The notes: generated by a model not told the origin, from the sequence alone. 64,000 bases of DNA from Eledone cirrhosa (GCA_964016885.1 OZ024752.1:19406001-19470000); one strand, 5' to 3'. Positions 4,391 to 56,344 are shown, counted from the first letter of the stretch. Translations and numbers: made by a program.

Positions 4391-5621
4391 ATGTGTGTGA
4401 ACACACACACACACACACATATATATATATATATATATATATATATATATATATATATATATATATATATATATATATATATGATTCAGGGAAATACATG
4501 TAAACGAAGCCTTACTGTTCACACACACACACATATATGTGTATGTATGTATGTATATGTATGTATGTATGTGTATGTATGTATGGATATATGTACATGT
4601 ATGTATGTATATATGTATGTGTATGTTTGTAATATATGTATGTGTGTGTGTATATATATATATATATATATATATATATATATATATATTGTAGCAGATA
4701 TGTCTTAATTGAAAATTCCCTGACTAAAAGTCCAATGATAGATAACTTTCCCAGTGGTGTGTTGGATTAATGGTGGACTAGGCTTTACATAAAGCAGGAT
4801 GTGTGTGTGTTTGTGTGTGTGTGTGTGTATGTATATATATATATATAAATAAATTTATATACATACATATATATATATATATATATATATATATATATAT
4901 ATATATATATATATATATATATATATATATATATAATAGCTTTCACCGTATTTTTCAACTAAAATACGGTGAAAGCTATTCTATTTTCTAATTTCAAACC
5001 TGTTCACTGTTTCAAAACATACTTACATATATATATATATATATAAATGGAAAAAATGAAATTTCATTTTTCACTCTTAGTATGGCTGATACTTAAATGT
5101 AAGTATGTATACGTACATACATATATGTATACAGACGTACAGTAGTATGTATATACATACATACATGCACACATTTATATATGTACGTATGGGTTTACCG
5201 AACATTTATTATAATGCTCGGTTTGTTTGTAAACAAACAGCCCGAATTATTAGTCGTACAGTGTTCAGCAACCATCGTTGCCATTTTGTTCAACACTGAC
5301 AAAAGAACGATGAACTAATTTCTAGCTTATTAGCTGTCATCAGCACCGTATACCTTCCTGTCAGTTGATTGAACGTTTGAAAGTATATACTTTCCTTATG
5401 GATATTAACGGCTGAGCAGCCTAATTTGCATATCGAGTGAGTTAGTCGGCCGGGCGTACCGATATATATATAGTGTATTTCTATTGTTTTTAGATTAGAG
5501 AGCTGTGTAAATAAATAGTTAGAATGAGGAAGTGAAGGCTTAATGAAAAAAGGGTGTTTCGAACACTGAACCTCTTTGTTCACAGTTTGGTATAGTTGCA
5601 GTTGTTTTATGAAGTGTTAAC

Positions 5622-5865
5622 TTAAACATTTAGGATTGAAACCGACCAGAATTCTCTCACCTCTCATACTGATGTTAAGGTATTGTTCTCAAAATAAATA
5701 TCAAAATCTCATAGATTCGATATTATGTGAGGTAAAGACTTTACCACGAAAATATAATAGTATATATAGAGTAATGTAAATGTTATGTGAGATATTATGT
5801 GAGGTAAAGCCTTTACCACGAAAATATAATAGTACATATAGAGTAATGTAAATTGTAAAGTGTTA
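5622..5865. mobile_element. Degenerate TTAA-flanked (piggyBac-like) MITE; related fragment at about 57275-57392
   Basis: Shared block GCCTTTACCACGAAAATA..GTAATGTAAA; ends GTAAAGTG-TTAA here and GTAAAGGG-TTAA in the 57.3 kb copy. Confidence 0.4.
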
Positions 5866-7048
5866 ATTATCTAAACATTCAATTCTTGAAACTATGTATG
5901 CCATAAAATAAATGTTTATTCTCATTATATCTGATTTTTTGAGGATCCTACATATTTGACCATAATTATGAGAAGTTAAACGAGAAGTTTAATATAAATA
6001 AATACCGATGGACCAGGGATGTTGGAGAGACAAGAAAATGAAGTCAAAATGCATTACATTTCTCAACACGGCAATTGAGCAATATCAAGGATTGGGGGTC
6101 AGACAGATTCTAAGTTGATCAACTCACGGCATATTTATTTATATTTGTTGAGAGAGGGAGGAGGAGAGAGAGAACATGGAGCTTTACATAAAGCAGGATG
6201 TGTGTGTGTGTGTATGTATATATATATATATATATAAATGTTCTCTCTCCTGCTCCCTCATGAAAGGAAAAGGGGGGAAAAAGCAAGGACTCGTCGGCCA
6301 CAGAAGAAAGGGAGAGAGACGGGGAGAGGGTCATGGGCTCTGAGTTTAGGGCGGGCTCATGTTTGGGCTGCTCCCCGCGGACTAAACTGCTATGGCAGAA
6401 TATTGTTTTACCGTTTAGTCATGGATGGAAGAGCACCTAGATATGTTACACCCTTGGTTAGCTCTACAGTGAAATGGCCCCTTCAAATTACATTTTGTAA
6501 TGTGACAAACATAATCTTTAACACTTTTTGATCTGATCCCACTAACAATTACCAAGCATTTCTACCCCCCCCCCCATGTCCATATCAAGTCATGTCACAA
6601 AAGGTCATAATACGATACGACCCTCTCCACCACTTCGGATATTTCAAAAAAGTTGCTCGTAGCAAAAATGTTAACAAATAATTTATAGATCGCCGGGAAA
6701 TTATAAATTTCATTTAATTACACAAATTTGTATAACACTGGAATCCTTTAAGGTTAAGTATTATCTCTCTAAGGTCGGCACCATTGGCGGCTGTCTAGCT
6801 GGCCTTAAGGGTAGAGCCGGTCTTTGTAGAAGGTCCCTACTTACTATATCACGTCACCAAATCCCTGTTCCGGTCTAATATCAACAAGACAAAATTAAAA
6901 CAAATAGGTTTTGGAAAATACGCAAGTGTCAGGATTTACAAGTTTCTCGCTTTTAGGGGTTCGTTTGTGCAACAAAAGGAATGGATCTCTTTGTACATAC
7001 ATACATACATACATACATACATACATACATACATACATACATACATAC

Positions 7049-7794
7049 AAAGATGTCATCGCGGTACTATCTACCTATGCGGCATGATGTAGTGGCCAAA
7101 ACACTACAATGCAGTCCGTAAAAAAAAAGATAGCCCCGATAATAAACACATTAAAAGCTACAGCAATGTGGAAGACATCCACGTACATAATATGAAAGAG
7201 TACTGGTGGAATGTTCCAGTAAAAACCCCAATAAAATGCAGGCATAACAGACCAGATATTATGATATGGGACAGGGAGAAGAAAGCATGCACAGTAGTGG
7301 AAATTAGCTGCCCAGCAGATGCCAATATAATATCAAAGATTAACGAAAAGGAGAATATTTATGCAGAACTGATGAGAAATCTGCAGATACTCCACCCTGA
7401 TTACACCTTCAGATTTATGCCTGTGATTATTGGGGCACTGGGATATGTTAGTAACTGCCTCAATACAAATCTTGAGAAGCTGGGCTTCACAGGAACAGAA
7501 AGAACACAACTAATTAGGAAATTACAAGTAGAATCCATTAATGGAACAATAAAAATATGTAAAACATTCCAAAAATTTTGCATCTAATAACTGCATATAC
7601 ACATGTACAGATACAAAGCATATACACATGCACACATACAACTCAAAACATACACATCAACACATACAATAACATCCGTATCTACCTATCTACCTAGTTG
7701 ATGTGTAAATTCCAATGAGAGGGTCTTGTGTCTATGTTAGAAACCAACTCTCTCTCTATTGGTAAAACTTTGTGAAATTATAAAACCAGAAGAA
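7049..7794 (+). mobile_element. 3' fragment of an RLE non-LTR retrotransposon (R4/Dong-like) inserted in an (ATAC)n microsatellite
   Basis: RHDVV at about 7080, then ORF 7168-7587 with NRPDIMIWD...VVEISCP...EK..Y...PVIIGALG (PD-(D/E)xK restriction-like endonuclease); (ATAC)n on both flanks. Confidence 0.85.
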
Positions 7795-53694: not shown

Positions 53695-54130
53695 TAAATG
53701 GAAAAAATGAAACGAAATTTCATTTCTCACTCTTAGTACGGCTGTTTCTTAAATATAAGTATGTATACGTACATACATATATGCTAACAGACGTGCAGTA
53801 GTATGTATATATATACATACATGTACACATATATATATGTACGTATGGGTTTACCGAACATTTATTATAACGATCGGTTTGTTTGTAAACAAACATCCCG
53901 AATAGTACATCGTTCCTTTGTCAGTGTTGAACAAAAGGGCAACGATGGTTGCTAAACACTGTACGGCTTAATTCGGGATGTTTGTTTACAAACAAACCGA
54001 GCATTATAATAAATGTTCGGTAAATCCATACGTATATATATATATGTGTACATGTATGTATATATATATACTTACTACTGTACGTCTGTATACATATATG
54101 TGTATATGTATGTACGTATACATACTTATA
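53695..54130. repeat. Dispersed repeat with internal inversion; homologue at about 5045-5305
   Basis: AAATGGAAAAAATGAAA...GGGTTTACCGAACATTTATTATAA shared with 5045-5240; about 53755-53903 inverts 53970-54130. Confidence 0.8.
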
Positions 54131-54141
54131 TATATATATAT

Positions 54142-55080
54142 ATACAAGTTAATATAAATTAATATATGATAAACACATAAGTGTTTGTATTGTAAAAGAC
54201 GAAGTTAGCTAGAATGAAATAAACTAATTCAAATAAATATAGTTTGCCTGTCTCGATTTAAAATAATAAATCAATAAAAACAAACCCATATTGGCAATAA
54301 CCGTGATACCTGGACAAATTTAAATTTCAAAATCCAAACCTGTTTCGCAGACAAATTTGAATTTCAAAACCCAAATAAGTTTCGCAACGATAGTATAAAA
54401 AAAGTGAAAGATTCCAATTTTCTGTGTTCATCAACAGGTATCCAGAAAAATTAGGATGTTTCACCTCGAAATATTTTTGGAGGTCTGGTGCACAAGCGCA
54501 AACGCACGAGGTTTTCCAGCTCACTAGCTACCCCATACCCACGGCGCAAGAAATAACAGCTGTTTATATGGGATTAAAAATTAGCTCAACAAAAGGAGCC
54601 GTAATATTATATTATATTTAGAGTTATAAACTCAAACAGTCCTTTACAATTAATTATCTCAAAGAAAGAAGCATTTCTGAGCCGTGAAATACAAGTTAAT
54701 ATAAATTAATATATGATAAACACATAAGTGTTTGTATTGTAAAAGACGAAGTTAGCTAGAATGAAATAAACTAATTCAAATAAATATAGTTTGCCTGTCT
54801 CGATTTAAAATGAAATTTAAATTTGTCCAGGTATCACGGTTATTGCCAGTATGGGTTTGTTTTTATTGATTTATTATTTTAAATCGAGACAGGCAAACTA
54901 TATTTATCTGAATTAGTTTATTTCATTCTAGCTAACTTCGTCTTTTACAATACAAACACTTATGTGTTTATCATATATTAATTTATATTAACTTGTATTT
55001 CACGGCTCAGAAATGCTTCTTTCTTTGAGCTAATTAATTGTAAAGGGCTGTTTGAGATTATAACTCTAAATATAATATAA
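54142..55080. mobile_element. 547-nt terminally redundant monomer plus inverted segment
   Basis: TACAAGTTAATATAAATTAATATATG recurs at offset 547 (54143/54690); 54813-55075 is inverted; GAGTTATAAACTCAAA..GAGCCGT block resembles family H3; only a degenerate TTGATGA...GAAA on minus near 54375-54435. Confidence 0.7.
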
Positions 55081-56344
55081 TATATATATATATATATATA
55101 TCAAAATGAAAATCCGAAGGCAAGGTAAATTTCCAATCATTTAATCACGACACATGTTTCTTATTGAAACATGTGTCGTGATTAAATGATTGGAATTTTA
55201 CCTTGCCTTCGGATTTTCATTTTGATACTTATACTCCGTTTTACATCATCTAGCTGTTCCCTCGAATGGAATTGGAGATATACAAAAGCGTGGAGAACTT
55301 AATATTGCTAACATAAAGTTATTGGACCATTTTACACAACCAATAATGCACCTTACTATATAACAACTATATATATATATATATATATATATATATATAT
55401 ATATATATATATATATATATATATATATATATATATATAATAATATATATAATATAATATATATATATAATATATATAATATATATATAATATATATAAT
55501 ATATATATATATAATATATATATAATATATATATAATATATATATAATATATATATATATAATATATAATATATATAATATATAATATATATAACTATAT
55601 ATATATATATATATATATATATATATATATATATATATATATATATATATATATATATATATATATATATATATATATATACATACAGTATATATATATA
55701 CAGTATATATATATAAACGCAAGACAGCCCCATATACGTATGCACACACACAAGCTCACACAGTATATTTCCACATAGAACCAACCTGCATGTACTTTGT
55801 TGTATCATATTTATACATACATGACCAGATTAGTTACGATATAGACGATGGAACGGCCGCGCATACACACACACACACACACACACACTTATACACACAC
55901 ACACACACACCTATATACACACAAACACATACATAGACAGACACTTAGACACACACACCTATATACACACAAACACATACATAGACAGACACTTAGACAC
56001 ACACGTCTATACACATACTTAGACACACACGTCTATACACACACTTAGACACACACCTATATACACACAAACACATACATAGACAGACACTTAGACACAC
56101 ACGTCTATACACATACTTAGACACACACGTCTATACACACACCTATATACACACAAACACATACATAGACTCATACTTAGACACACATTTATACAGACAC
56201 ACTCCTACACACGTCGTGCAATGGCTGCTCACTTAATTATTCGTCTTGTATCTCCACTGATCGCCTCTTCAGATAAAGGAGGAATGTTAGGTAGAGGAAG
56301 TTTATTTCCTCTATTGAAATAAAGTGCATTCTTTTATCACAGCC

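Follow-up and report, generated by a model that had tools for sequence, protein, structure and literature searches.

We analysed a stretch of 64,000 nucleotides (nt) from Eledone cirrhosa (GCA_964016885.1, OZ024752.1:19406001-19470000), called here the window, in which Penelope-like elements (PLEs) with hammerhead ribozymes (HHRs) are joined to inverted copies of themselves. Five palindromes and two further inversion breakpoints in this window are aged head-to-head 5' junctions of PLEs lying in (TA)n. The head-to-head architecture of PLEs has itself been described already; what is added here is an excess of breaks inside the ribozyme, together with sequence evidence for twin priming. The account we favour, with moderate confidence, is that two target-primed complementary DNAs (cDNAs) are joined head to head on short overlaps, the folded ribozyme being a likely, family-dependent stop. 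The effect of the ribozyme is strong only where the whole ribozyme is unseen, which limits the claim.

A preliminary description of this DNA had reported five palindromes centred just upstream of the 3' half of a ribozyme (GAAA, a helix and TH), with the CTGANGA half missing, and two inverted arms that break in helix II. All of these were found where it placed them. The palindromes beginning at 4935, 14282, 14666, 33248 and 55101 are centred 14, 14, 2, 16 and 3 nt, respectively, 5' of their GAAA (positions 4971, 14350, 14764, 33320 and 55166), and a scan of the palindrome stretch upstream of each motif found no CTGANGA, one mismatch being allowed. Their arms are nested, with spacers of 0-6 nt, and locus-specific variants are common to both arms. 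Between the arms we counted no difference at 4935, 3 substitutions at 14282, 6 substitutions and 2 indels at 14666, 2 substitutions at 33248 and 1 at 55101; the diverged arms in four of the five palindromes argue that these are not library fold-backs. All five are known here from the window sequence, and the test on public reads described below used another copy of the same family as 14282 and 33248. The families concerned (A to D) have the following copies in the window, with offsets (such as -14) counted to the G of GAAA and inverted pairs given without a strand.

4935..5027, + strand: family A, a 20-nt inverted arm and a sense arm running to (TA)n, with a weak candidate for an HHR 3' half.
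14282..14469, + strand: family B, copy B1, an inverted arm with a short 3' end and a sense arm with a 78-nt tail; breaks at about -12/-14.
33248..33439, + strand: family B, copy B2, with the layout of B1; breaks at about -15/-17; its insertion site is the (TA)n inside a family K copy.
17922..18059, + strand: family B, copy B3, a single 5'-truncated arm from about -18 (GAAA 17940), the reference of the read test.
30296..30390, - strand: subfamily B', copy B4, an arm that has the short 3' end and extends to about -29, across a hairpin resembling helix II; it is head to head with a short sense piece.
34120..34256: subfamily B', copy B5, an inverted tail-only arm and a sense arm that begins at about -12 and has the short 3' end; non-nested.
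21658..21724, - strand: family B, copy B6, tail only, stopping about 60 nt 3' of GAAA.
14666..14862, + strand: family C palindrome, both arms starting at -2 with a 2-nt self-complementary overlap; helix III is palindromic.
48927..49022, + strand: C2, a relative of family C at 73% identity, overlooked by the preliminary description.
55101..55367, + strand: family D, a 61-nt inverted arm with a short 3' end and a sense arm of about 200 nt; breaks at 0/-5.

Families B, C and D have a strict GAAA, palindromic helix III and UH motif. The half at 4935 is weak and passes the loose motif only, and family A has no second copy in the window. The helix III of C2 differs from that of family C by paired changes, and no CTGANGA occurs within 147 nt upstream of it. 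Since the CTGANGA core is absent from every window copy of families A-D, the label "half ribozyme" is drawn from the 3' half. A strand able to pair with the bases 5' of GAAA was found for B and B' only, in the loose ends of reads and at 30350-30365. Two other arrangements were considered and rejected: a type II topology for B, C and D, with the core downstream of helix I, where no CTGANGA is present, and a junction centred on the palindromic helix III (a ribozyme-dimer joint), given that all five centres lie 5' of GAAA. Separately, the 5' strand of helix III in family B has a second possible partner in the bases just upstream of GAAA (33313-33328 and 30330-30345), and their pairing gives a hairpin of 5-6 base pairs (bp) capped by the GAAA region; as modelled, this hairpin could compete with the ribozyme fold and possibly act as an off-state.

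The two further breakpoints belong to families in which intact ribozymes are present. The arm ending at 23519 breaks 39 nt 5' of GAAA, within the 48-nt helix II region seen in the intact copy at 25836. The second arm has its start near 53333-53335, ~10 nt upstream of GAAA (53343), which corresponds to loop II in three intact copies (29405, 33553 and 53114).

23125..23986: family E inverted pair; the left arm stops at -39 in helix II, the right arm starts from -114 and has an intact HHR (core 23576).
25692..26022, + strand: family E single copy with a near-intact HHR (core 25836), starting at -199.
40648..41721: an inverted pair of family E with an intact HHR in each arm (cores 40988, - strand, and 41455, + strand), breaking at about -213; a counter-example.
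52805..53640: family K inverted pair; the left arm runs through the HHR (core 53114, - strand) to about -241, the right arm starts from loop II (about -10).

Each arm of this family K pair passes an internal (TA)n and then a 170-nt end piece; in family K generally (29183-29470, 33037-33778, 52805-53640) the internal (TA)n lies about 15 nt past the HHR and the 170-nt piece always comes next. In another family K copy, at 29480-29650, an upstream part appears inverted beside a 3' part without overlap, resembling an L1-type 5' inversion.

Intact ribozymes are genuinely present in the window. Nine strict type I HHR motifs were found, compared with 0.06 per shuffle (maximum 1 across 100 shuffles), all nine with a palindromic helix III and little or no loop; ten looser HHRs were recognised by eye. 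Two of the strict HHRs sit in 3' regions behind endonuclease open reading frames (ORFs), and helix II regions of 26-48 nt are common. An Rfam search (E up to 1) gave no hammerhead among the 150 of 159 matches listed, which were microRNA-like matches on hairpins or microsatellites and one snoRNA fragment. Single-copy hammerheads of three further families occur at 27067, 27915 and 28995 (+ strand), the last a very compact minimal motif.

Of 21 short-spacer inverted junctions (long-spacer and TA-centred pairs were left out), five have a loose half motif no more than 20 nt away (p 0.018) and four a strict one (p 4e-4), or 3/20 when family B is counted once (p 0.005). Palindromes or inverted pairs with neither an HHR half nor a second copy in the window occur at 8206-8298, 14882-15106 and 34052-34113. 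Two other inverted pairs have a (TA)n run, not an element junction, at their centre: one at 31817-32211 (160-nt arms, 99% identity) and one at 26282-26545 (70-nt arms, 93% identity).

To ask where copying ends, we tabulated by hand 44 arms of 14 HHR-linked families and 8 arms of unassigned inversions, counting stops per base copied, with upstream reach limited to 300 nt and zone limits assumed for A, C and D. Stops were concentrated in the HHR, with 17 in 1,419 nt compared to 23 in 9,450 nt elsewhere (rate ratio 4.9, p 4e-6), and for helix II only with 13 in 776 nt compared to 27 in 10,093 nt (ratio 6.3). Taking one arm per event gave 10/1065 nt against 12/6633 nt (ratio 5.2, p 3e-4), and leaving out family B gave a ratio of 3.3 (p 0.036). 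When arm lengths were permuted across families, 4.8 stops were expected in the zone and 18 of 37 were observed (table before two small corrections). Most of this signal comes from families A-D, where 14 arms reach GAAA, 13 of them stopping in the zone and one (C2) having an unknown end.

Family B was also followed in public reads, with 4 of 16 listed runs examined on the single copy at 17690-18062: two raw restriction-site-associated DNA sequencing (RAD-seq) runs, with about 26,700 reads each over the whole stretch, and the contigs of two older runs. Thirteen of the 15 joints listed, out of 18, switch strand. One end falls at 17920-17938, within 20 nt 5' of GAAA, and the other at 17959-18026, in 11 of these 13; the remaining two are 17982/18062 (both 3' ends) and 17984/18035. 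Ten of the 13 occur in both raw runs, which are separately labelled samples, with two of the ten also in contigs of another study, and three occur in contigs only. Under a uniform null this clustering has p 1e-5 (11 of 12), or 5e-4 if the three unlisted rows all fell outside, and we infer that the joints are head to head. No perfectly centred palindrome joint is among those listed; such palindromes are hard to detect in short reads and their contigs.

The loose ends of these reads are informative at both ends of the copy. Behind 17982 they consist of (AT)n, in 3393 reads of one run and 2867 of the other, and their presence in thousands of reads indicates that the short 3' end is family-wide in B. 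Loose ends 5' of 17938 (1692 and 1636 reads) agree at 0.63-0.64 and those 5' of 17922 at 0.45; the 30-letter B' consensus of those 5' of 17938 holds a hairpin able to pair with the bases before GAAA. For family B a helix II strand thus appears to exist upstream, with a putative core. A pile of read ends at 17929 (6640 and 6921 molecules) was not taken for biology: it falls on AATT and is read as the RAD cut of a presumed enzyme. The segment 17696-17740 is a 45-nt piece of another high-copy repeat, with about 3,000 reads per run and a common continuation.

How the two arms arise is best seen in the remaining HHR-linked families with inverted arms.

32612..32957: family J inverted pair, both arms with HHRs (cores 32796, - strand, and 32894, + strand), breaks at -56 and -110; non-nested, a counter-example.
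53697..54126: family G inverted pair; the sense arm (53903) starts in helix III, 3-5 nt short of the cut site as located in the intact copy (core 5343, - strand); non-nested.
54612..55075: family H inverted pair; the sense arm (54811) starts within the long helix III of an HHR-like motif (about 54312-54437, - strand).
28674..28886: family F inverted pair, breaks at about +130/+145, that is, 3' of GAAA (HHR-like motif 28490, - strand); non-nested, a counter-example.
49235..52419: family L, 1-kb inverted arms flanking an endonuclease remnant (50332-51366, - strand), with an intact HHR in both (49327, - strand, and 52327, + strand); a counter-example.

The helix III breaks of G and H were overlooked by the preliminary description. 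Family H is a 73-78% relative of family F, and the HHR-like motif at 54312-54437 has a C-to-T change in its core and a duplicated GAAA-helix III-TC segment.

At four junctions (32612-32957, 53758-54126, 34120-34256 and 28674-28886) the arms are non-nested, the tail-bearing arm stopping further 3' than the tail-less one. A cDNA that snaps back copies only what it holds, so its second arm must lie inside the first; unless they owe their shape to later deletions, these four junctions must come from two cDNAs that were primed separately. In addition, each family has two recurring 3' ends, with and without a tail (the short end of family B is found in four window arms), and in 7 of 8 families the short end has 3-5 nt in common with the TA target; the chance of this, calculated from the families' own sequences, is about 4e-6. 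At the inner junctions we find overlaps of 4 nt (23516-23519) and 2 nt (14762).

We therefore favour the joining of two primed cDNAs. Both target strands would be nicked and extended, the second priming internally on a UA-rich spot. The template would be uncleaved or re-ligated RNA, because the arms run across the cut site, and copying would often end at helix II or III. The two cDNA ends would then anneal on 1-5 nt or be end-joined; where both had stopped at the same place, a palindrome would result that is centred just 5' of GAAA, the CTGANGA half never having been copied. In PMC11167929, a purified Penelope-like protein, predicted to be dimeric, nicked and extended both strands of its target; synthesis began at two positions bounding the tail, and the RNA used was mostly unprocessed. 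Two-strand extension on unprocessed RNA fits arms that cross the cut site and end upstream of it.

Several observations weigh against this account or against the part given in it to the ribozyme. Two were omitted from the preliminary description: 16 of the 21 short-spacer junctions have no half motif in the loose scan, and 19 window arms read through an intact or near-intact HHR. In families other than A-D, only 2 of the 21 arms reaching GAAA stop in helix II, these 19 being the rest. For the seven multi-copy families with intact HHRs, a subset biased to read-through by its own definition, helix II holds 2 of 18 uncensored stops (ratio 1.6, p 0.38) and the HHR as a whole holds 4 (ratio 2.1, p 0.15), so that stalling in such families is weak at best. 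Breaks also fall outside the HHR in J (-56/-110), E (-213) and F (+130/+145), and in L at about -1000 and -2100. The arm coordinates and the zone limits of A, C and D were set by hand. Nine of the 11 clustered read joints lie at the edge of the reference copy (17920-17923) or at the point where B' diverges (17938), with no intervening letters listed, which makes their exact places uncertain, and the 30 letters of the B' consensus contain no canonical core. Monomer folding of ten HHR segments gave z of -1.9 to +0.9, not clearly stronger than shuffles; a stall would then need an HHR dimer, a bound protein or an unseen helix II. The five named palindromes, being nested with shared variants, are explained equally well by snap-back. 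Finally, initiation as reported in the available part of PMC11167929 is not homologous to the cut DNA, unlike the TA overlap found here.

The claim that breaks cluster in the ribozyme thus stands for the pooled arms and for the family B reads, while resting mostly on families A-D, the excess in intact-HHR families not being significant. The proposal that the ribozyme hairpin explains Penelope-type inverted termini lacks support in the form given. Such termini arise far from HHRs and also in a high-copy family resembling short interspersed elements (SINEs), in which no HHR was found and which forms five inverted pairs or palindromes (11453-11800, 18839-18944, 21727-21774, 29712-30163 and 63367-63441) usable as a control; the ribozyme is therefore not required for inverted termini. 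As for a stall of reverse transcription at the ribozyme hairpin, the enriched breaks agree with it, and an RNA 5' end at the same place would fit them too.

That last possibility is the strongest rival for the clustering. Here the RNA of B, C and D would itself begin in or just before helix II, as a truncated non-autonomous master or by a transcription start, and copying would run off its end, the joining of two cDNAs being kept. All 13 uncensored A-D arms that reach GAAA stop in the zone and none reaches a core, against 19 read-throughs of 21 elsewhere, and the poorly agreeing loose ends of B, without a canonical core in 30 letters, point the same way. Against it, the ends in family B are scattered over about -2 to -29 rather than fixed at one base, and in E, K, G and H, where the RNA clearly continues upstream, single arms likewise end within the HHR; with helix II regions of 26-48 nt being common, the core could lie past the 30 letters seen. 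We regard run-off as a serious possibility, though a minority one.

The preliminary description had instead proposed that reverse transcription stalls at the ribozyme hairpin and that the cDNA snaps back or switches template there. In the snap-back form a single cDNA would fold over and copy itself, and the resulting hairpin would later be opened into a palindrome. The geometry and shared variants of the five palindromes agree with this, and the accessible passages of PMC3846280 interpret PLE junction palindromes as self-priming. As stated, a single snapped-back cDNA is ruled out for the four junctions with non-nested arms. A fold-back copy would also need the identical stop base (17982) in thousands of reads, and the spacers of B (2-5 nt) are smaller than the loops that the reads' loose ends suggest, of 7 nt for B' and about 10 nt for a B contig, and so do not represent the native loop. 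For the window as a whole we consider this origin doubtful.

It is improbable that the clustering reflects ascertainment or geometry, through short insertions with the HHR 10-350 nt from their 3' ends and junctions picked for a nearby GAAA. The many junctions without a half motif, the lack of a significant excess in intact-HHR families and the inverted pairs of the SINE-like family would be expected on that view, but the permutation accounts for only 4.8 of the 18 stops in the zone, and the family B read joints cluster there even in the worst case. Fold-back chimeras from library preparation or assembly would suit the missing centred joints among those listed, and can be dismissed as most implausible given the diverged arms in four of five palindromes, the flanking (TA)n and the family-wide 3' sites at which the arms end, and the finding of ten strand-switch joints in both of two separately labelled samples, with two of these joints present in another study's contigs as well.

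Returning to two joined cDNAs, a more specific version can be put forward, which we think rather unlikely: the PLE hammerhead may be a programmed stop and joining site, at which the folded, protein-bound ribozyme halts both reverse transcriptases (RTs) of a dimer, which had set out from opposite target strands, and brings the cDNA ends together. If true, inverted termini and palindromic mini-copies would be direct products of the ribozyme fold, a role that needs no self-cleavage.

The elements lie in AT-rich DNA (37.6% GC, without N), 28% of which (17,727 masked bases) is simple repeats, together with remnants of PLEs and of several RTs of the long interspersed element (LINE) type. In its repeats the window resembles cephalopod DNA. 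Three PLE endonuclease remnants (2700-3629, 15950-16585 and 50332-51366) can be aligned with each other and with database relatives, the CNCR..CP..C..Y..Y.G motifs being kept; the first, used as query, gave 8 matches out of 374 candidates (best E 3e-38). The first belongs to a decayed PLE.

1308..4723, - strand: decayed PLE with an RT remnant (3782-4723), a GIY-YIG-type endonuclease remnant (2700-3629), an AT-rich 3' region and a family J HHR (core 1493).

From their shared order and strand, these parts probably form one contiguous PLE. The endonuclease remnants and this RT remnant agree by eye with the Hydra-clade alignment in the accessible part of the PMC8557442 supplement. Judged by this motif match, made by eye, the PLEs of the window are likely endonuclease-bearing members of the Hydra clade, an assignment that covers the ORFs adjoining families J and L. 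The insertion traits expected of PLEs are all present in the window: a (TA)n target, 5' truncation, an inverted 5' copy and an optional tail. Pfam gave no match for the PLE endonuclease and RT remnants of the window. Among metagenome contigs the endonuclease query returned 85 pattern matches, none a confirmed relative, and a pattern scan of metagenome and viral contigs gave no family B copy. Five short window motifs were absent from the available supplement text of PMC8557442, where line breaks within its sequences could mask matches.

Further observations concern the neighbouring elements. Asn-rich inserts of unequal length precede the endonuclease Cys motif at 2700-3629 and 50332-51366 (- strand); Asn-rich linkers of that kind are described for rotifer Penelope elements in the available part of PMC3846280. 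At 15278-17578 and 35017-35584 lies a PLE that has 295-nt inverted arms and the remnant of an endonuclease; no canonical hammerhead was found in it, and two one-mismatch cores are present at 17151 and 17517. Other non-LTR (long terminal repeat) retrotransposon remnants were recognised by RT matches at 20601-21455, 24206-25639 and 35904-39643, and one without a Pfam match at 7093-7587. Long degenerate minisatellite or microsatellite arrays, at about 58200-63000 and 43600-48300, give rise to spurious open frames.

The two-cDNA account has a counterpart in L1 twin priming, where the second target strand primes internally by microhomology and the two joined cDNAs produce a 5' inversion, the arms copying adjacent, non-overlapping parts of one RNA. 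Microhomology of the kind expected from internal priming (at least 3 nt in 7 of 8 families) is shared with the PLEs studied here. Unlike L1, most arm pairs in the window overlap, by 20-1000 nt, only 34120-34256 coming close to non-overlap; such overlap calls for a second copy of the RNA, a tandem transcript or strand displacement.

Among PLEs themselves, insertions with pseudo-LTRs (pLTRs), an inverted 5'-truncated copy, an optional tail and palindromes at the inverted junction are described in the accessible passages of Arkhipova et al. 2013 (PMC3846280) and Craig et al. 2021 (PMC8557442). The former reports junction palindromes of 18-38 bp with head-to-head pLTRs and tails, interpreted as self-priming on an antisense template; the latter treats the inverted 5' copy as general. 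The window PLEs share with them the head-to-head arms, junction palindromes, one-arm tail, 5'-junction microhomology and Asn-rich linkers, whereas self-priming on an antisense template misfits the four non-nested pairs. The passages available from these papers do not place the junction relative to the hammerhead, and our literature search, outside which lay most subscription journals and several supplements, found no paper mapping PLE inversion breakpoints to it. Hydra-clade elements have, in the available text of Craig et al. 2021, a (TA)n target and, about 100-200 nt away from the 3' end, a canonical HHR whose helix III has 3-4 bp and a loop of 1-3 nt. The (TA)n target is the same here, as are the helix III and loop size of the C and D halves; the long helix II (26-48 nt) of several window HHRs differs, and families A-D are tied to no window ORF. 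Minimal dimeric type I HHRs occur in metazoan PLEs, with opposite-strand pairs 100-700 bp apart (Cervera and De la Pena 2014, PMC4209133, as far as accessible). The palindromic helix III with little or no loop described there is found in our nine strict matches and in the B, C and D halves, while A-D, known from sequence alone, differ in carrying the 3' half only.

An experimental system for comparison is PAc (Poseidon of Anolis; Frangieh et al. 2024, PMC11167929, in part). On the account favoured here, the two have in common the cutting and extension of both strands, two starts bounding the tail, uncleaved RNA as the main template and an AT-rich target; the short ends here differ in overlapping TA by 3-5 nt, and the portion of its main text available contains neither inverted products nor HHR stops. 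The formation of tandem and inverted PLE ends and the role of the hammerhead are both named as open in the accessible part of PMC8557442. Our analysis offers two marks that bear on these questions: arms that are not nested and whose second 3' end overlaps TA, and 5' breaks that are over-represented in the ribozyme, upstream of its cut site. Both could be tested in the existing in vitro system, and the first accords with the two-strand extension seen in the consulted part of PMC11167929.

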